Assembly (NCBI RefSeq): GCF_046105845.1
Contig: NZ_CP151004.1
Direction: 5' to 3' (one strand)
Length of the DNA: 64,000 nt
Origin: Escherichia coli
Lineage (GTDB): Bacteria; Pseudomonadota; Gammaproteobacteria; Enterobacterales; Enterobacteriaceae
Of the stretch, positions 33,684 to 55,060 are shown piece by piece (positions within the stretch are counted from its first letter, which is position 1; each line of letters opens with the position of its first letter). Below the pieces are notes generated by a model, which saw nothing but the letters and a program-made list of their open reading frames with translations, made no database searches and was not told where the DNA came from. Both the position numbers and the translations under genes were made by a program.

Positions 33684-33847
33684 CGGTCGTGTTCTCCGTA
33701 ACGAATTATTGATAAGGTGAATATTTTTCTGCGGGCTATTTTACATACTTAACTCCATAGCCGTTAGTTATCCCTTCCTAAAGTAGAAACCAACAACAAA
33801 GAAGCATAAAATCAACATTTCATTAACTAATGAAGTGTAAGGATGAT

Positions 33848-34315
33848 ATGTCTGCCGTACTGACCGCTGAACAAGCCCTGAAATTAGTGGGTGAGATGTT
33901 TGTTTATCACATGCCATTTAACCGCGCATTGGGGATGGAACTGGAGCGTTACGAAAAAGAGTTCGCACAGCTGGCCTTTAAAAATCAGCCAATGATGGTG
34001 GGTAACTGGGCGCAAAGCATTTTGCACGGCGGAGTCATTGCGTCGGCGCTGGATGTCGCCGCCGGTCTGGTGTGCGTGGGAAGTACCTTAACCCGCCACG
34101 AAACCATCAGTGAAGATGAACTACGCCAGCGGCTATCGCGGATGGGGACCATTGATCTTCGCGTTGATTATCTGCGCCCAGGCAGGGGCGAGCGTTTTAC
34201 TGCTACCAGTAGTCTGTTGCGGGCAGGCAATAAAGTCGCCGTCGCCCGCGTTGAATTACACAATGAAGAACAGCTTTATATTGCCAGCGCTACAGCCACC
34301 TATATGGTAGGTTGA
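33848..34315 (+). CDS. yigI: PaaI/4HBT-type acyl-CoA thioesterase YigI
   Basis: Translation [36 protein letters not shown]... (155 aa) recognised; start at internal Met of track ORF. Confidence 0.88.
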
Positions 34316-34366
34316 TAACGTAAAAGCAGGTAAACTGCTGTTACCAATTAAAAATGAGTATTCCCG

Positions 34367-35257
34367 ATGGATGCAAAACAAACGCGGCAGGGCGTATTAC
34401 TCGCTCTTGCCGCTTATTTTATTTGGGGTATTGCGCCAGCGTACTTCAAGCTGATTTACTACGTGCCCGCCGATGAGATCCTGACGCATCGCGTGATCTG
34501 GTCGTTTTTCTTTATGGTGGTGCTGATGAGCATTTGCCGCCAGTGGTCCTATTTAAAAACGCTGATTCAGACGCCACAGAAAATTTTTATGCTGGCAGTC
34601 TCTGCCGTGCTGATTGGTGGCAACTGGCTACTGTTTATCTGGGCGGTGAACAATCACCATATGCTGGAAGCGAGCCTTGGTTACTTTATTAACCCGCTGG
34701 TGAACATTGTGCTGGGGATGATTTTCCTCGGCGAGCGATTCCGCCGGATGCAATGGCTGGCGGTGATTCTGGCAATATGTGGCGTGTTGGTTCAGTTGTG
34801 GACTTTTGGTTCACTGCCGATTATCGCGCTGGGGCTGGCGTTTAGTTTTGCCTTCTACGGCCTGGTACGCAAGAAGATTGCTGTTGAAGCGCAAACCGGC
34901 ATGTTAATCGAAACTATGTGGTTGCTGCCCGTGGCGGCGATTTACCTGTTTGCTATTGCCGACAGCTCAACCAGCCATATGGGGCAAAACCCGATGTCAC
35001 TGAATTTACTGCTGATCGCCGCCGGGATTGTCACTACCGTACCGCTGTTGTGTTTTACTGCGGCTGCGACACGCCTGCGTCTCTCAACGTTAGGCTTTTT
35101 TCAGTACATTGGCCCGACGCTGATGTTCCTGCTGGCTGTGACGTTTTATGGTGAAAAACCGGGTGCCGATAAGATGGTGACCTTCGCCTTTATTTGGGTG
35201 GCGCTGGCAATTTTTGTGATGGATGCGATTTATACGCAGCGTAGAACGTCCAAATAA
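34367..35257 (+). CDS. rarD: DMT-family permease RarD
   Basis: 296-aa membrane ORF recognised as RarD. Confidence 0.92.
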   Translation: MDAKQTRQGVLLALAAYFIWGIAPAYFKLIYYVPADEILTHRVIWSFFFMVVLMSICRQWSYLKTLIQTPQKIFMLAVSAVLIGGNWLLFIWAVNNHHMLEASLGYFINPLVNIVLGMIFLGERFRRMQWLAVILAICGVLVQLWTFGSLPIIALGLAFSFAFYGLVRKKIAVEAQTGMLIETMWLLPVAAIYLFAIADSSTSHMGQNPMSLNLLLIAAGIVTTVPLLCFTAAATRLRLSTLGFFQYIGPTLMFLLAVTFYGEKPGADKMVTFAFIWVALAIFVMDAIYTQRRTSK

Positions 35258-35315
35258 AAAATAAATATATTCTGAAAAAATATGCCGACTCTTGCATGAG
35301 AGTGGGCATATTGCC

Positions 35316-35693
35316 ATGCTGACAGGAGACTCACATAAGAAAGGCAGAATTTCCAGACGTCGTTGTATATTTTCATTTGCTTTAATAAATTTCATTTTTG
35401 CCTTTCTTATTATCTTTTTTAACGATGGGGACGCAGGTTTTCTTGTTATTGTCTCTACCAACGCACTCCATTATCTCGTCATCAACATAAATTGCCAACG
35501 ACTCCGTGATAGTGGTTTCATATATATAAAAACTTATGTTTTTGGTACATTAGCAGTATATATCATCTCTATCATCACAATGATAGCCGAACATTTTGAT
35601 TGTTCAGGCAATGGTTCGATGATTTTTTTGATTTGTTATTTTTCCACTTTCAGTATGCTAATGCTTGCACCTACTGATTCATCAAAACAATAG
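35316..35693 (+). CDS. yigG: small inner membrane protein YigG
   Basis: AT-rich ORF encoding a hydrophobic protein ([35 protein letters not shown]...); first ATG used because the track start at 35292 is a TTG. Start uncertain. Confidence 0.65.
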
Positions 35694-35706
35694 TTATGGA
35701 GTATTT

Positions 35707-36087
35707 ATGAGTAAGGAATATATGAACGATGGTTCATTAAGTGAAAAATGGAAATACCGATTTAATTTTTATGATCAACATGGCTTTCCTGGATTCTGGG
35801 GGGCAACACCAGAATATAAAGCAGCATTTAAAACATTAAAAGTAAGACAACGATTAACTATTCAAATGAATTTCATTGCTTTCTTCTGTTCCTGGATCTA
35901 TTTATTTGTTCTGGGATTATGGAAAAAAGCAATTATAGTTCTATTACTTGGCATTCTATCTCTATTTGTTGGTGCACTAATTGGCGTTAACATTCTGGGA
36001 ATTGCCGTAGCAGCCTATGTTGCTGTTAACACGAACAAATGGTTTTATGAGAAAGAGGTAAAAGGGTTAAATACCTGGAGCCTTTGA
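35707..36087 (+). CDS. yigF: small inner membrane protein YigF
   Basis: ATG with GGAG ribosome-binding site about 11 nt upstream; 126-aa hydrophobic protein MSKEYMNDGSLSEKWKYRFNFYDQHGFPGFWG... recognised as YigF. Confidence 0.75.
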   Translation: MSKEYMNDGSLSEKWKYRFNFYDQHGFPGFWGATPEYKAAFKTLKVRQRLTIQMNFIAFFCSWIYLFVLGLWKKAIIVLLLGILSLFVGALIGVNILGIAVAAYVAVNTNKWFYEKEVKGLNTWSL

Positions 36088-36093
36088 ATAACA

Positions 36094-36129
36094 GGTGGCT
36101 TAGCCAGGCTAAGCCACCGCCTTCTTTTT
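36094..36129 (+). terminator. hairpin terminator between convergent yigF and corA
   Basis: Stem-loop GGTGGCTTAGCCAGGCTAAGCCACC followed by GCCTTCTTTTT on the + strand; overlaps the corA stop codon. Confidence 0.5.
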
Positions 36130-37078
36130 ACAGCCAGTTCTTGCGCTTAAAGTACAGATACGGTGCCAGGCCCGCGAGGATCATAAAGATAATCGCGCCA
36201 GGGTAGCCGAAACTCCACTTCAGTTCCGGCATAAACTCAAAGTTCATCCCGTAGCTGGAAGCAACCAGCGTTGGCGGCAGGAACACGACGGATACCACCG
36301 AGAAGATTTTGATGATGCGGTTCTGCTCGATGTTGATAAAGCCCATCGCCGCCTGCATCAGGAAGTTCACCTTCTGGAACAGAGATTCGTTATGCGGCAG
36401 CAGGGATTCGATATCTCGCAGGATTTCACGCGCCTGCTCCAGCTGCCCGCCCGGTAAACGCGCCTTACGCACCAGGAAGTTGAGCGCACGCTGGGTATCC
36501 ATCAGACACAGGCGAACTTTCCAGCCGATATCTTCCAGTTCCGCCAGCGTGGAGAGCGCCTCGTCGTACTCATCGCCCTGATGCCCTTCCATAATTACCC
36601 GGCTCAACTGCTCCAGGTCGCTGTAGATATTTTCAATTTCATCTGCCAACTGTTCGATTTTGGTTTCGAACAGATCCAGCAGCAGCTCGTAGGCGTTACC
36701 GTCCACCATTGACTGGCTACGGGCACGCATACGATACAGACGGAATGCAGGCAGTTCACGCTCACGCAGAGTAAACAGACGACCATCACGGATGGTAAAT
36801 GCCACAGTGGAGTTACCGGCGTGATCTTCCGCATCTTCAAAGAAGAAGAAGGAGTGAATATGCAGGCCGTCATCGTCTTCAAAGAAACGTGCCGATGCTT
36901 CGATGTCTTCCAGTTCCGGGCGGGTTGCCAGGCTCTGACCAAGTTCAGATTGTACGCGCAGTCGCTCGTCGTCGTCCGGTTCGACAAGATCAATCCATAC
37001 TGCATTTACAAGGGGTTGTGACTCTTCGACTTCCAGCCGGGTCAGTCGGTTATTTTCCAGTTGAAATGCGCTCAGCAT
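36128..37078 (-). CDS. corA: magnesium/cobalt/nickel transporter CorA
   Basis: Translation [31 protein letters not shown]... ending ...[40 protein letters not shown] (316 aa) recognised as CorA, including GMN motif. Confidence 0.94.
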
Positions 37079-37447
37079 GACCGGGACTCCCAATGCTTAA
37101 AATATCGGACAGTTCGGTGGGCACACAGAAACAAATTGGGTTTCAGACCATTAAACAGCCTGACTCAGCGCGACGGGAAAAATTGAGGTCGCTGACAACC
37201 GCTAAGGCTATCAGCAAAAAGGGATAGCCTTAGGAGTTGATCCTGGATGACAGGATAGTGAGCCAGTATCTACTGGGTGTGTCCAAGGCGAATGTCCTCT
37301 TAGAGTGATCGTGCGCGCATGTTACGCCAGCAAAATTTTGCCGTCAACACGCAACAGAACACCACAGAACAATAGTTGAACTTCGCGCTTTTTGGTACTC
37401 GTCAAGGTCGCTAACAGGATAAAAAAATCCCACATCCAGGACCTATA

Positions 37448-38212
37448 ATGGCGCATCGGCTACTCATTGGTAAAGGAATGATCACCTTGAATCTCAAACG
37501 GATTTTTCTCACCCTCACCTTACTTCCCTTATTTGCTGTTGCCGCTGATGATTGCGCACTCTCAGATCCGGCGCTGACCGTACAGGCGTATACCGTTAAT
37601 CCTCAAACAGAGCGGGTGAAAATGTACTGGCAAAAAGCCAATGGCGAAGCGTGGGGAACGTTACATGCTCTGCTGGCGGATATTAATAGTCAGGGTCAGG
37701 TGCAGATGGCAATGAACGGCGGCATCTATGATGAAAGCTATGCGCCGCTCGGTTTGTACATCGAAAACGGTCAGCAGAAGGTGGCGTTAAATCTCGCTTC
37801 AGGTGAAGGGAATTTCTTTATTCGTCCTGGCGGCGTGTTTTATGTCGCGGGAGATAAAGTCGGCATCGTTCGTCTGGATGCCTTTAAAACCAGTAAAGAG
37901 ATTCAGTTTGCGGTGCAGTCAGGGCCAATGTTATTAGAAAACGGCGTAATTAATCCGCGTATTCATCCCAACGTCGCCTCACGTAAAATTCGTAACGGTG
38001 TTGGGATTAATAAACAAGGGAACGCCGTGTTTTTGTTGAGCCAGCAGGCGACAAATTTTTATGATTTTGCCTGTTATGCCAAAGCGAAACTGAACGTTGA
38101 GCAGTTGCTTTATCTTGATGGCACAATTTCACATATTTATATGAAAGGCGGGGCAATCCCGTGGCAACGCTATCCTTTTGTCACCATGATTTCCGTCGAG
38201 CGGAAAGGTTAA
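37448..38212 (+). CDS. yigE: DUF2233-family (phosphodiester glycosidase-like) protein YigE, predicted exported
   Basis: 254-aa ORF divergent from corA, with signal-peptide-like N-terminus; recognised as YigE. Domain assignment from memory. Confidence 0.8.
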   Translation: MAHRLLIGKGMITLNLKRIFLTLTLLPLFAVAADDCALSDPALTVQAYTVNPQTERVKMYWQKANGEAWGTLHALLADINSQGQVQMAMNGGIYDESYAPLGLYIENGQQKVALNLASGEGNFFIRPGGVFYVAGDKVGIVRLDAFKTSKEIQFAVQSGPMLLENGVINPRIHPNVASRKIRNGVGINKQGNAVFLLSQQATNFYDFACYAKAKLNVEQLLYLDGTISHIYMKGGAIPWQRYPFVTMISVERKG

Positions 38213-51529: not shown

Positions 51530-52726
51530 ATGCTAAAAGTGTTATTGCTCTTTGTGTTGCTGATTGCGGGGATAGTGGTTGGCCCGATGATTGCCGGACA
51601 CCAGGGTTACGTGCTGATCCAGACCGACAACTACAATATTGAAACCAGCGTCACTGGCCTGGCGATTATTTTGATTCTGGCAATGGTAGTGCTGTTTGCC
51701 ATTGAGTGGCTACTGCGGCGGATCTTCCGCACAGGCGCACACACCCGTGGGTGGTTTGTCGGACGTAAGCGTCGCCGTGCGCGTAAGCAGACCGAACAGG
51801 CGCTGCTGAAACTAGCGGAAGGCGATTATCAGCAAGTTGAAAAGCTGATGGCGAAAAATGCCGATCACGCGGAACAACCGGTGGTGAACTATTTGCTGGC
51901 TGCCGAAGCCGCGCAACAACGTGGTGATGAAGCACGCGCCAACCAACATCTGGAACGCGCAGCGGAGCTGGCCGGCAATGACACCATTCCGGTAGAAATC
52001 ACCCGTGTACGTCTGCAACTGGCCCGTAATGAAAACCATGCTGCACGCCACGGCGTGGATAAGCTGCTGGAAGTTACGCCACGCCATCCAGAAGTATTAC
52101 GTCTGGCGGAACAGGCGTATATCCGCACAGGTGCATGGAGTTCGCTGCTGGATATCATCCCATCAATGGCGAAAGCCCATGTTGGTGATGAAGAACATCG
52201 TGCAATGCTGGAACAACAGGCATGGATTGGCCTGATGGATCAGGCGCGTGCCGATAACGGTAGCGAAGGTTTGCGTAACTGGTGGAAAAACCAAAGCCGG
52301 AAAACGCGTCATCAGGTGGCGTTGCAGGTGGCAATGGCGGAACATCTTATTGAATGTGACGATCATGATACTGCCCAGCAAATTATCATCGACGGCCTGA
52401 AACGCCAGTATGACGATCGCCTACTGCTGCCGATCCCGCGTCTGAAAACCAATAACCCGGAACAGCTGGAAAAAGTGCTGCGCCAACAGATCAAAAACGT
52501 GGGCGATCGCCCGCTGTTGTGGAGCACACTGGGTCAGTCGCTGATGAAGCACGGAGAATGGCAGGAAGCATCGCTCGCCTTCCGCGCAGCGCTGAAACAA
52601 CGTCCGGACGCCTACGATTACGCATGGCTTGCCGACGCGCTGGACAGACTGCACAAACCAGAAGAAGCTGCAGCGATGCGCCGCGACGGTTTGATGTTAA
52701 CGTTGCAGAACAACCCGCCACAGTAG
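51530..52726 (+). CDS. hemY: HemY, TPR-repeat inner membrane protein of the hem operon
   Basis: 398-aa ORF recognised as HemY; starts 3 bp after hemX stop. Confidence 0.93.
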   Translation: MLKVLLLFVLLIAGIVVGPMIAGHQGYVLIQTDNYNIETSVTGLAIILILAMVVLFAIEWLLRRIFRTGAHTRGWFVGRKRRRARKQTEQALLKLAEGDYQQVEKLMAKNADHAEQPVVNYLLAAEAAQQRGDEARANQHLERAAELAGNDTIPVEITRVRLQLARNENHAARHGVDKLLEVTPRHPEVLRLAEQAYIRTGAWSSLLDIIPSMAKAHVGDEEHRAMLEQQAWIGLMDQARADNGSEGLRNWWKNQSRKTRHQVALQVAMAEHLIECDDHDTAQQIIIDGLKRQYDDRLLLPIPRLKTNNPEQLEKVLRQQIKNVGDRPLLWSTLGQSLMKHGEWQEASLAFRAALKQRPDAYDYAWLADALDRLHKPEEAAAMRRDGLMLTLQNNPPQ

Positions 52727-52736
52727 TTCTTTCTCA

Positions 52737-52758
52737 CCCGGAGGCAAGCACCTCCGGG
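52737..52758 (+). terminator. putative hairpin terminator after hemY
   Basis: CCCGGAGGCAAGCACCTCCGGG stem-loop 10 bp after the hemY stop; weak T-tract (ACCTTTCTG), so efficiency uncertain. Confidence 0.35.
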
Positions 52759-52773
52759 ACCTTTCTGATACAT

Positions 52774-52980
52774 AAAAAAACGCCTGCTCTTATTACGGAG
52801 CAGGCGTTAAAACAGGTCTGTATGACAACAAGTGGGTGCTTCACTCAACGTTGTGTCCATGGTGTCTGATGAGGCATAAGCGACATCTGTCAGTGGACGA
52901 TAAGCACCGTAAACGGCTCTGCGTCATTCCGGAGTTTATGAGGCACTAAGGCGAACATAAGAGATGGAATGAGCATCTAC
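52774..52980 (-). ncRNA. glmZ: GlmZ small regulatory RNA (SraJ/RyiA), activator of glmS translation
   Basis: Minus-strand sequence from GTAGATGCTCATTCCATCTCTTATGTTCGCC... to the terminator hairpin AACGCCTGCTCCGTAATAAGAGCAGGCGTTTTTTT matches GlmZ as I recall it; lies in the hemY-aslA intergenic region where glmZ is known to map. Confidence 0.85.
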
Positions 52981-52986
52981 TCGTTT

Positions 52987-52992
52987 ATTATG
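52987..52992 (-). promoter_or_regulatory. candidate -10 element of glmZ promoter
   Basis: Reverse complement CATAAT sits 7-12 nt upstream of the GlmZ 5' end. Confidence 0.35.
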
Positions 52993-53404
52993 CCACAGAG
53001 AACCGGGAAATAACATCCCTTAACACTTGTTATGAGATAATTCTGTAATCCTCTTTGCTTCCTGAGTAATAACTTCCTGAGTGAATATTTCTCCTGCGCA
53101 CGATTCTACACATATATATAATGAATAATAAAAGTCATTCAATTAATAACATATATATTAATTGCCGTTAAAACTAAAAACAGCATCAATAATCAACGCG
53201 ATATAACATCACCGCCTTACATATCACCTGCGCCAGAGGTAGGATTGAAAACGCTCTCCTGATTTTCCAATTCATTTTCTGGATAAATAAATAATTTATT
53301 TTTATCACTATTATTTATGCAATCATCCTGTCAGGGAGAGGGATCTCAATTATCAATGCTTAATTACGTCAACATTTTGACGACATGAAACCGGAGCATT
53401 TTGC

Positions 53405-55060
53405 ATGGAATTTTCGTTTTCACCCAAACTTCTTGTTGTGGCTGTCGCCGCCGCTCTTCCACTCATGGCCAACGCAGCAGATACCCCGTCAACCGCCACC
53501 GCACGCAAAGGCTTTGCCGGATACGATCACCCAAACCAGTATCTGGTTAAACCGGCGACCACTATTGCCGACAACATGATGCCGGTGATGCAGCATCCTG
53601 CACAAGACAAAGAAACCCAGCAGAAGCTGGCAGAACTTGAGAAAAAAACCGGTAAGAAACCGAACGTGGTTGTTTTCTTGCTGGATGATGTGGGCTGGAT
53701 GGATGTTGGCTTTAACGGCGGCGGCGTGGCGGTGGGTAACCCTACACCAGATATCGACGCCGTTGCCAGCCAGGGGCTGATTTTAACTTCGGCGTATTCT
53801 CAACCGAGTTCTTCCCCAACCCGCGCCACGATTCTTACCGGGCAATACTCCATCCACCACGGCATTCTGATGCCGCCAATGTACGGGCAACCGGGCGGTC
53901 TGCAAGGGTTAACCACTCTGCCGCAGTTGCTGCACGATCAGGGCTACGTCACTCAGGCCATCGGGAAATGGCATATGGGGGAAAACAAAGAGTCGCAGCC
54001 GCAGAACGTTGGCTTTGATGATTTCCGCGGTTTTAACTCGGTATCCGATATGTATACCGAATGGCGTGATGTTCACGTCAACCCGGAAGTCGCCCTGAGC
54101 CCGGATCGTTCTGAATACATCCAAAAACTGCCGTTCAGCAAAGATGACGTTCATGCCGTGCGCGGCGGTGAACAGGAAGCCATTGCCGACATTACGCCGA
54201 AATATATGGAAGACCTGGATCAACGCTGGATGGAATATGGCGTTAAGTTCCTCGACAAGATGGCGAAGAGCGATAAGCCTTTCTTCCTCTACTACGGCAC
54301 TCGCGGCTGTCACTTCGATAACTACCCAAATGCGAAATATGCGGGTAGCTCTCCGGCGCGCACCTCTTACGGCGACTGCATGGTGGAGATGAACGATATC
54401 TTCGCCAATCTGTATAAAGCACTGGAGAAAAACGGTCAGCTTGATAACACGCTGATTGTGTTCACCTCTGATAACGGTCCGGAAGCCGAAGTTCCGCCGC
54501 ACGGTCGCACACCGTTCCGCGGTGCGAAAGGTTCTACATGGGAAGGCGGCGTTCGTGTGCCAACCTTCGTTTACTGGAAAGGCATGATCCAACCGCGTAA
54601 ATCTGACGGTATTGTCGATCTGGCGGATCTCTTCCCAACCGCGCTGGATCTGGCGGGGCATCCTGGAGCGAAAGTGGCGAATTTAGTGCCGAAAACCACC
54701 TTTATCGATGGTGTGGACCAGACATCCTTCTTCCTGGGAACAAATGGTCAGTCTAACCGTAAGGCCGAGCACTACTTCCTCAACGGCAAACTTTCTGCTG
54801 TGCGTATGGATGAGTTCAAGTATCACGTCCTGATCCAGCAACCGTACGCGTATACCCAGAGCGGGTATCAGGGTGGATTCACCGGTACAGTAATGCAAAC
54901 GGCGGGATCGTCGGTGTTTAACCTGTACACCGATCCGCAGGAAAGCGACTCCATCGGCGTGCGCCATATCCCAATGGGTGTACCGCTACAGACCGAAATG
55001 CATGCGTATATGGAGATCCTGAAAAAATATCCACCACGCGCGCAGATTAAATCTGATTAA
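53405..55060 (+). CDS. aslA: arylsulfatase-family sulfatase AslA
   Basis: 551-aa ORF with signal peptide and sulfatase signature ([19 protein letters not shown]-x-P-x-R type motif), recognised as AslA. Confidence 0.93.

Follow-up and report, generated by a model that had tools for sequence, protein, structure and literature searches.

The AT-rich yigG-yigF pair of Escherichia coli, an accessory cassette that alternates with others between rarD and corA

Promoter islands, in the definition of the Ozoline group, are stretches of ≥300 bp unusually crowded with promoter-like start points. In E. coli, 78 promoter islands have been listed, for instance at yjgL, yhiL, and the waa genes (PMC3661553). 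In the same study, yigF/yigG of K-12 constitutes promoter island 4000528_663, which H-NS occupied in every ChIP data set (Table 1 of PMC3661553) and which was called foreign by two methods. Moreover, an H-NS-repressed intragenic promoter lies inside K-12 yigG (PMC7229825), and yigF-yigG is silenced under a small extended protein-occupancy domain (10.1101/2020.01.29.924811, Fig 7C). Further K-12 sources on H-NS, promoter islands, protein occupancy, and RNA polymerase SELEX are PMC3946193 and PMC5493296. In other words, the AT-rich, H-NS-silenced yigG-yigF pair of E. coli is already described. The pair shares with other H-NS-silenced E. coli islets a low GC content, dense -10-like elements, H-NS occupancy (in the K-12 orthologue), a low transcript output, and a predicted foreign origin. 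Unlike them, it spans a mere 0.87 kb with two genes and is devoid of mobility genes, and its position is conserved across genera, whereas many other islets sit in prophages or larger islands.

Two other systems come close. The DUF3289 (YPO3983 family)/DUF943 pair, i.e., a colicin-M-like effector of the T6SS with the cognate immunity protein (Mol Syst Biol 2024, PMC11148199), is, like yigGF, a two-gene cassette with both genes on the same strand and 31-36% GC, found in the same slot. The families are unrelated, however: the DUF3289/DUF943 pair consists of a 282-aa soluble toxin and a 165-aa membrane immunity protein, for which experiments have demonstrated both toxicity and rescue (PMC11148199). 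YhaH and YhaI, two inner-membrane DUF805 proteins of E. coli, resemble YigG in length (118-126 aa) and in their multi-pass membrane topology, and share with it a basic G(R/K)xSRR motif before TM1 and an RRL(H/R)D(S/T)G motif after TM2. Unlike them, YigG scores under the Pfam DUF805 cut-off, belongs to a tiny family, and is always paired with a DUF2628 protein.

Here, we analysed the locus in a window of E. coli DNA (the whole stretch studied, 64 kb). Near-identical E. coli loci carry the RefSeq names rarD, yigG, yigF, and corA, and the window has the same gene order, rarD/corA flanks, AT-richness, and terminator hairpin as yigG (b3818)-yigF (b3817) of K-12 MG1655, to which its block is 96.7% identical in nucleotides. 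It differs from K-12 MG1655 in that its yigG has no canonical ribosome-binding site and lacks the start codon and eight codons. The features are as follows.

34367..35257, plus strand: rarD, EamA-family transporter, core gene and left flank (GC 0.507, GC3 0.62; from the ORF and the annotation of near-identical loci).
35258..36127, no strand: the AT-rich islet as a whole, bounded by the stop codons of rarD and corA (GC 0.348).
35279..35312, plus strand: hairpin just past the rarD stop, preceded by an A-run (fold -20 kcal/mol, z -4.9).
35316..35693, plus strand: yigG, a rare allele with a 39-bp in-frame deletion (from the ORF, NCBIfam PRK11371 at 224 bits, and alignments).
35339..35340, plus strand: point at which the 39 bp are missing in comparison with K-12 and the loci L001 and L002 (from alignments).
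35694..35706, plus strand: yigG-yigF spacer of 13 nt with the yigF ribosome-binding site GGAG at 35698-35701 (from the sequence).
35707..36087, plus strand: yigF, 126 aa, DUF2628 protein (from Pfam PF10947, hydropathy, and dN/dS of 0.05-0.15).
36094..36118, no strand: hairpin between the convergent yigF and corA, with a perfect 11-bp stem and a 3-nt loop (from folding and a repeat search).
36128..37078, minus strand: corA, Mg/Co transporter, core gene and right flank (GC 0.53).

An earlier note, counting by eye, had put the G and C content of 35290-36090 at roughly one third, against about half in rarD and corA. The computed values agree: 34.3% in the block, compared with 50.7% in rarD, 53.4% in corA (36128-37093), and 0.525 in the whole window, so that the block lies far under its flanks and not within a few percent of them. 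Indeed, only 0.19% of the 801-bp stretches of the window are at or below the GC of the block, which stands about 5.3 SD under their mean (0.525, SD 0.034); the lowest of all (GC 0.335) starts at 35252, and 35001-36000 (0.376) is the sole 1-kb bin under 0.46. Codon usage goes the same way, with a GC3 of 0.30 in yigG and 0.28 in yigF against 0.62 in the flanks, while GC2 (0.35-0.36) is near that of the flanking genes (0.33-0.41). Hence, the AT-richness reflects more than the amino-acid content of membrane proteins: the composition of the block is of a foreign type at synonymous sites.

The islet is also the maximum of the window for -10-like hexamers (19.5 per kb versus 4.0 per kb in the rest) and holds 13.8 AT-only runs of at least 8 nt per kb, compared with 1.9 per kb in the remainder. 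A strict two-hexamer (-35/-10) promoter scan gave 2 sites versus 3.5 expected from composition-preserving shuffles, i.e., no excess, so the promoter-island character would follow from AT content and not exceed it. That the block is an H-NS-silenced islet, as the earlier note had suggested, is supported for this window by analogy, through the K-12 orthologue and its published ChIP data, intragenic promoter, and occupancy domain. From this K-12 work, H-NS would coat the region and keep it silent together with its many spurious promoters.

The two genes nearly abut, as had been noticed: yigG stops with a TAG at 35691-35693 and the yigF ATG lies at 35707, five bases downstream of GGAG. The two positions, 35693 and 35707, are 14 apart; the intervening bases number 13. 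This 13-nt spacing is common to the E. coli loci and Superficieibacter, and in a distant homologous pair the genes overlap by 4 nt. The hairpin at 35279..35312, which read on the minus strand would have a U-run after its stem, likely acts on the left border of the islet as a terminator or an insulator; allele B, a deeply diverged yigGF allele of E. coli, retains the stem via an A-U to G-C change. The hairpin at 36094..36118 is terminator-like for both strands and moves along with the yigGF cassette: the same one follows yigF in BL21, and a different one follows DUF943. An Rfam scan of 34000-38000 (E ≤1) returned nothing except a chance miRNA match, and ORF and Pfam analysis revealed no toxin-like ORF within 35258-36127.

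The yigG allele of the window is peculiar. Its 39-bp deletion takes out the canonical ribosome-binding site (AAGGA) together with the ATG and the eight N-terminal codons (MLRIFIPT), leaving a longest ATG-initiated frame of 125 aa; a TTG at 35292 would yield 133 aa. The exact 125-aa product is rare (only 2 contigs in the whole collection), and the deletion was not seen in any complete E. coli genome among the full-length matches listed. The haplotype of the window at 35290-35400 agrees with the yigG remnant of strains devoid of yigGF. Judging from the sequence, the deletion probably cripples yigG in this window.

The description of both products as small and hydrophobic is borne out by hydropathy. 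YigF scores 40.7 bits against DUF2628 (PF10947; gathering cut-off 23, E 3.4e-10, profile positions 9-91 of 93), and its hydropathy profile predicts about 50 cytoplasmic residues at the N-terminus and then a transmembrane hairpin of two helices. Its AF2 model, built from a 9-sequence alignment, was too poor for use (pLDDT 58.6). YigG of K-12 is modelled as a four-helix inner-membrane protein (AF2, pLDDT 86.6), and this model had no PDB match in Foldseek at E <5 and none among the BFVD viral structures. All 14 of the 14 YigG family members match DUF805 (PF05656), the scores shown all being under the cut-off of 25.7 (best score 22.1 bits; best E 2.2e-6; 12.6 bits for the window allele); one homologue bears a precomputed PF05656 tag and another the UniRef name 'DUF805'. 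When the YigG family was compared with YhaH/YhaI by hhalign, the two shared motifs were aligned, with a probability of 17.9% and an E of 1.3e-3. An hhalign probability of 18% makes the link of YigG to DUF805 a weak one, insufficient for assigning it to that family. A profile search of 1.84 billion proteins found only 23 representatives; each of them is YigG-like, and canonical DUF805 proteins are absent from the set. Purifying selection acts on both genes (dN/dS of 0.14-0.27 for yigG and 0.05-0.15 for yigF), which are real genes; their ORF length and the motifs GxISRR, QRLRDSG, and NKWFYEKEVKG are kept across genera. A PADLOC scan (E ≤0.1) gave no defence-system match for YigG, YigF, or the proteins of the alternative cassettes.

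Presence and absence of the pair were surveyed in 5426 complete E. coli genomes, a segment being counted as present when covered at ≥80%. The distribution is patchy: yigGF is present in 2963 genomes (~55%), 565 of which carry allele B (~77% nucleotide identity), and absent from ~45%. The DUF3289/DUF943 cassette, found in 2627 genomes of the 5426, either replaces yigGF at the rarD-corA slot or follows it in tandem, and an O157-type segment is present in 1431; the window does not contain the DUF3289/DUF943 cassette. The alternative cassettes of the slot have a GC content of 31-36%. More precisely than in the earlier note, the block can be described as one cassette among several that alternate here. 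In many lineages the cassette is deleted, and in the BL21 lineage yigG has an internal stop.

Across the representative genomes of 100,044 species, no more than 14 loci turned up, of which 9 are enterobacterial. Every YigG-like gene found, in several enterobacterial genera, is directly followed by a yigF-like (DUF2628) gene adjoining the corA 3' end. The rarD-corA slot holds the pair in Escherichia, Superficieibacter, Atlantibacter, Salmonella, and other Enterobacteriaceae, down to 45% amino-acid identity, which argues that the occupancy of the slot is old; it is compatible with ancient vertical inheritance and many losses too. In Atlantibacter, two cassettes are separated by corA' and rarD' fragments; E. 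whittamii retains yigG-yigF-DUF943 without a toxin gene; and the DUF2628 genes of Pseudomonas stand alone, in unrelated contexts.

The alleles are much deeper than the genes around them. Between the K-12 allele and allele B, dS reaches 0.70 for yigG and 1.25 for yigF, against 0.17 for rarD and 0.11 for corA, i.e., a divergence within E. coli 4-12 times that of the flanks. Moreover, in E. coli R9 the allele B block and its E. albertii counterpart share 99-100% of their nucleotides, compared with 89-95% for the adjacent corA, and such sequence identity indicates that one allele has passed recently between E. albertii and E. coli. Hence, the proposal of an old, horizontally acquired block stands, carried by GC3, the patchy presence, the slot shared across genera, and the allele identical to that of E. 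albertii. Within the block and next to it, ORF analysis and a repeat search detected neither an integrase nor a transposase, and no terminal repeats or att-like sites; as insertion scars, only short chance matches and the two hairpins came up. A xenogeneically silenced islet need not carry such features. Since signatures of mobile elements are lacking, homologous recombination in the rarD and corA flanks is the most likely route of cassette exchange. The last 147 bp of corA are duplicated in strains with two tandem cassettes, and the corA'/rarD' fragments are copies of 147-264 bp of the flanking genes. When the K-12-type corA 3' end was considered as a derivative of a duplicated corA', pairwise identities over the 147 bp did not point clearly either way.

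Several other readings of the block have to be weighed. Its low GC could be a by-product of small, hydrophobic proteins rich in Ile, Phe, Leu, Lys, and Asn, encoded by ordinary, vertically inherited core genes, and the similarity of GC2 to that of the flanks would fit. Yet the deficit is greatest at synonymous third positions, even in comparison with rarD, which itself encodes a 10-TM membrane protein; AT-richness is just as marked in the non-coding parts of the islet (GC 0.339) and extends to the alternative cassettes; and nearly half of the complete genomes do without the block. GC3 and the presence/absence pattern refute this reading, to which we attach next to no credence. It is also very improbable that the ORFs are non-functional, persisting by chance in a decaying AT-rich spacer or pseudogene remnant. 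The silence of the K-12 locus under standard conditions, the BL21 stop, the lost yigG start codon of the window, and the many cassette deletions would speak for such a decay, whereas dN/dS is well under 1 for both genes across deep divergences, ORF length, spacer, and motifs are retained across genera, and the YigG model is confident. Salmonella 'yigG' deletion phenotypes (PMC3579871) point the same way; we count them as weak evidence, since the deleted gene may have been yigF. Indeed, the 82% identity to K-12 quoted in that study fits YigF (84%) better than any YigG value, and the YigG searches, including that of the 1.84 billion representatives, returned no protein source-named as Salmonella. 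A recent insertion between rarD and corA of E. coli by a mobile element (IS, integron-like, phage, or integrative island) can be evoked from the foreign composition, from the IS1 insertions and rearrangements at the locus in some strains, and from the duplicated corA 3' fragments, which look like target duplications. The block and its borders show none of the repeats or mobility enzymes of such elements, however, its slot is the same in divergent genera, and the corA'/rarD' copies fit Campbell-type recombination better than transposition; we hold such an insertion to be highly unlikely.

Pore-forming-colicin immunity proteins are small inner-membrane proteins, and so are YigG and YigF. The latter two could form a competition or protection module, for instance an orphan membrane immunity against a bacteriocin or a T6SS effector that targets membranes, or a phage-exclusion pair, and be one of several 'warfare' cassettes held at the slot by balancing selection. 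The cassette indeed shares its slot with a validated effector/immunity pair of the colicin-M-like type, and the two mostly exclude each other; the alleles, deeper than their flanks, are common across species; presence is polymorphic; and E. whittamii keeps the genes, with DUF943, in a toxin-less arrangement. Against this, no toxin gene adjoins yigGF in the K-12-type arrangement, PADLOC gave no match, selection is purifying and not diversifying, the Pseudomonas DUF2628 genes are solitary, and DUF2628, DUF805, PF10947, and PF05656 are absent from the supplements of the T6SS effector-immunity study (PMC11148199). We consider this combined reading unlikely. In its broadest form, equally doubtful to us, the rarD-corA slot would be a long-lived 'armoury' of the Enterobacteriaceae, where AT-rich, H-NS-silenced two-gene cassettes, yigG-yigF as a protection module among them, would be maintained by balancing selection and traded between species. 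If so, yigG-yigF would be a membrane-embedded immunity or exclusion system against a membrane-targeting toxin or phage, and would compete with or complement the DUF3289/DUF943 pair instead of being its bystander.

The explanation that we favor, and hold to be very probably right, identifies the block as the yigG-yigF operon, a cassette of the accessory genome, rich in AT, that occupies a slot bounded by two core genes, rarD and corA. The cassettes of this slot would be swapped through homologous recombination in these two genes, and two slot alleles would occasionally be stacked when a circularised fragment integrates in a Campbell-type event, which would leave the corA' and rarD' fragments present in some genomes. 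YigG (four TM) and YigF (N-terminus inside, two TM) may act together as a small inner-membrane complex, a suggestion that we judge evenly balanced. This complex would be made only once silencing lifts and could have an accessory envelope or protective role; any specific role is less than an even prospect.

For the most part, these results confirm textbook xenogeneic silencing, i.e., a tiny foreign-type cassette amid core genes and coated, in K-12, by H-NS, to which the comparative picture of the slot adds modest value. They show that yigG-yigF is not a core 'y-gene' pair but belongs to a set of several cassettes alternating at a single hot slot, and that the K-12 annotations at this locus do not carry over to about 45% of E. 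coli strains. The comparison of the slot gives a concrete handle on two orphan families of membrane proteins, DUF2628 and the DUF805-like YigG.

The GC content of 300-bp sliding windows falls from ~0.51-0.53 in rarD to 0.32-0.36 at ~35300-36100, and rises again to 0.52-0.55 in corA. The features concerned are the following:

Whole window: GC 0.525
rarD: stop at 35257; GC 0.507
35258-36127: islet, from the rarD stop to the corA stop; GC 0.348
35279-35312: left edge, hairpin following the rarD stop; fold -20 kcal/mol, z -4.9
35290-36090: yigG-yigF block; GC 0.343
35693: stop of the yigG ORF
35707-36087: yigF, from its ATG (GGAG ahead) to its end
36094-36118: right edge, between the convergent yigF and corA; perfect 11-bp-stem hairpin, terminator-like on both strands
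corA: GC 0.534

The earlier note had described this block as strongly AT-rich, and the computed gap with both flanking genes goes far beyond a few percent; the yigG stop and yigF start that it gave are both correct. Indeed, among the window's 801-bp stretches, just 0.19% have a GC content equal to or below that of the block. The block lies ~5.3 SD under their mean, their minimum (0.335) starts at 35252, and its 1-kb bin is the only one below 0.46 GC in the window. That this AT-richness merely comes from encoding membrane proteins is ruled out by the GC3 (0.30 in yigG and 0.28 in yigF vs 0.62 in rarD, whose product is itself a polytopic membrane protein, and 0.63 in corA), by a GC2 that is alike in these two genes and in the flanking ones, and by the non-coding leader of the islet, which is as AT-rich as the genes. 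Elsewhere, a dip to 0.39 GC at 33700-33999 corresponds to the divergent pldA-yigI intergenic region, a short and ordinary-looking promoter region.

The silencing by H-NS that had been suggested for this islet is a published fact for the K-12 orthologue, the block being 96.7% identical to that of K-12. In K-12, yigF/yigG figures among 78 "promoter islands", is bound by H-NS in every ChIP study compared, and is predicted to be of foreign origin by two methods (PMC3661553, Table 1). Moreover, yigG contains an intragenic promoter that is H-NS-repressed and AT-tract-dependent (PMC7229825), IPOD-HR reveals a small extended protein-occupancy domain that silences yigF-yigG (10.1101/2020.01.29.924811, Fig 7C), and SELEX peaks of RNA polymerase holoenzyme lie at or inside yigF/yigG. 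In the window, the islet shows the top density of -10-like hexamers (19.5 per kb vs 4.0 elsewhere) and a ~7x enrichment in AT-only runs of 8 or more. Composition accounts for this promoter density, since a strict two-hexamer promoter scan of the islet gave no excess over composition-preserving shuffles. The second-highest hexamer density, at 52600-53770 (13 per 870 bp, stretches starting 52601-52901), overlaps the ~680 bp that separate two long ORFs (52727-53404); GC in the 53001-54000 bin is 0.463.

The window carries the chromosomal run pldA-yigI-rarD-yigG-yigF-corA-ysgD-yigE (megablast, 5426 complete E. coli genomes). Both yigG and yigF are real genes under purifying selection, with dN/dS values (Nei-Gojobori, for divergences within E. 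coli up to intergeneric ones) of 0.14-0.27 for yigG and 0.05-0.15 for yigF, and with conserved motifs and gene lengths. Their products had been proposed to be small membrane proteins, and hydropathy agrees, giving four hydrophobic segments in YigG and, in YigF, a two-helix hairpin preceded by ~50 N-terminal residues that form a charged region. The AF2 model of YigG is a confident four-helix bundle (pLDDT 86.6, pTM 0.77) with no informative structural neighbour in the PDB or viral structure sets; that of YigF is poor (pLDDT 58.6). YigF matches Pfam DUF2628 above threshold. The sole match of YigG is the NCBIfam equivalog PRK11371, and its family comprises 23 representatives at E <=1e-3 among 1.84 billion. 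All 14 YigG members tested match Pfam DUF805, every score shown being below threshold. YigG shares two motifs (GxxSRR before TM1 and RRL(H/R)D(S/T)G after TM2) with YhaH/YhaI, which are bona fide DUF805 proteins; profile-profile comparison aligns both motifs, at 18% probability only. Hence, YigG is DUF805-like and at most a candidate member of DUF805.

In this window, yigG itself is altered. Compared with K-12, another E. coli locus (L001) and the divergent allele B, 39 bp are gone at 35339/35340, and with them the ribosome-binding site (AAGGA), the canonical start ATG, and eight codons (conserved MLRIFIPT). The frame is open back to an upstream ATG at 35316, which is immediately preceded by a stable hairpin and has no ribosome-binding site ahead in the sequence. 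The haplotype of 35290-35400 is that of the yigG remnant found in strains without yigGF, and in this remnant a nearly identical deletion spans 38 bp. In the whole collection, 2 contigs only encode exactly this 125-aa product, and the deletion was not found in complete E. coli genomes among the full-length matches listed. We infer from these alignments that this yigG is a recombinant allele, probably poorly translated; yigF keeps its own ribosome-binding site intact. In BL21/T7Express, yigG is an annotated pseudogene with an internal stop (L005:1595-1975), another independent hit on this gene, and yigF is intact.

The rarD-corA interval is polymorphic among the 5426 complete E. coli genomes:

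yigGF covered over at least 80%: 2963
of these, allele A-like: ~2400
of these, allele B (~77% nucleotide identity; e.g., strain R9, O25b:H4): 565
first 111 nt of the block only (to 35400), then DUF3289 and DUF943: ~990
O157-type segment, then a corA 3' fragment (corA') and DUF3289/DUF943: 1431
BL21-type tandem yigG-yigF-corA'(147 bp)-DUF3289-DUF943-corA: ~200, derived by subtraction (2627 - ~994 - 1431) rather than by direct count

All these cassettes have a GC content of 31-36%. The O157-type segment (L003:1802-2700) lacks yigF; it contains an unannotated 128-aa YigG-like ORF (L003:2314-2700) and, on the opposite strand, a 104-aa hydrophobic membrane ORF (L003:1802-2116). DUF3289/DUF943 has been shown by experiment to be a colicin-M-like toxin with its immunity protein, and is a candidate T6SS effector pair (PMC11148199). 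In the BL21 lineage, the tandem cassettes (L005:2410-4075) are separated by the duplicated corA 3' fragment. In Atlantibacter, a rarD 3' fragment (rarD') is found in addition. Both tandems resemble a Campbell-type stacking of two slot alleles. The Atlantibacter order is rarD-yigG-yigF-corA'-rarD'-DUF3289-DUF943-corA (L018:4429-6474, L027:5432-7459), which could result from the Campbell-type integration of a circularised alternative allele of the slot via corA homology. Recombination between corA' and corA would presumably then cause the loss of either cassette. In E. whittamii (L024:5001-5975), a DUF943 immunity-type gene lies within ~105 bp after yigF, with neither the DUF3289 toxin gene nor a corA fragment, an orphan-immunity-like arrangement. 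As for the edges, the right hairpin moves with yigGF, and DUF943 is followed by a different one. The left hairpin shows a compensatory A-U to G-C stem change in allele B; as, on the plus strand, an A-run precedes it and no U-run follows, it would better terminate antisense transcripts exiting the islet.

The two alleles are deeply divergent. Between the K-12 allele and allele B, dS reaches 0.70 in yigG and 1.25 in yigF vs 0.17 in rarD and 0.11 in corA. YigF of allele A shares 83-85% identity with the Salmonella and Superficieibacter proteins, as opposed to 70% with its allele B counterpart in E. coli. The latter and E. albertii YigF are 99% identical. The allele B block of E. coli R9 is 99-100% identical in nucleotides to its E. 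albertii counterpart (yigF block, L002:2216-2665 vs L026:1-450) but the adjoining corA only 89-95%, direct evidence of a recent interspecies exchange. The metagenomic YigG protein P0006 is a chimera, identical to allele B in its N-terminal half and to allele A in its C-terminal half (alignment A2), implying intragenic recombination. Because a repeat search found no IS, integrase, or terminal repeats flanking the block, the exchange was likely mediated by homologous recombination within the conserved flanks.

Beyond E. coli, a DUF2628 gene (126-130 aa) directly follows every YigG-like gene that can be placed on a contig, from a 4-nt overlap to a gap of ~50 nt, and the pair adjoins the corA 3' end in all placeable loci. 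These belong to Escherichia species, Superficieibacter electus, Atlantibacter subterranea, other Enterobacteriaceae genomes, and metagenomic contigs. Representative genomes of 100,044 species yielded 14 loci only. This arrangement is kept even when LacI and enolase-superfamily enzyme genes are inserted between rarD and the pair. In some Salmonella contigs, yigF lies beside corA; Pseudomonas DUF2628 genes are found alone, at other places. In the taxa with the pair, its GC content is always lower than that of its flanks (0.33-0.48 vs 0.52-0.58). The pair thus has a long history in this slot, is fast-evolving and often lost, and has not drifted to host composition. The old horizontal acquisition put forward in the earlier note is supported by the shared slot, the foreign-type GC3, and the alleles common to E. 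coli and E. albertii. The strict pairing and tight spacing suggest a joint action of YigG and YigF in the inner membrane. Deletion of Salmonella "yigG", which may be either gene of the pair, is reported to cause attachment and chlorine-stress phenotypes (PMC3579871).

Taken together, we consider well supported the reading of yigG-yigF as an accessory, AT-rich cassette that H-NS silences and that is exchanged through homology in its flanks. That it also acts as a competition or protection module seems improbable to us. Its DUF3289/DUF943 company in the slot, its deep trans-species alleles, and its presence/absence polymorphism would fit such a role, but no toxin gene is adjacent to yigGF, PADLOC gave no match, the T6SS effector-immunity tables do not include it, and both genes are under purifying selection. 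The core of our preferred reading, an AT-rich H-NS-silenced islet, is already in the K-12 literature. The comparative additions are useful and will not surprise a specialist: alternative cassettes for a single slot, one of them a colicin-M-like effector/immunity pair, and likewise interspecies allele sharing, an obligate YigG-YigF pairing, and, in this window, a rare start-codon deletion.
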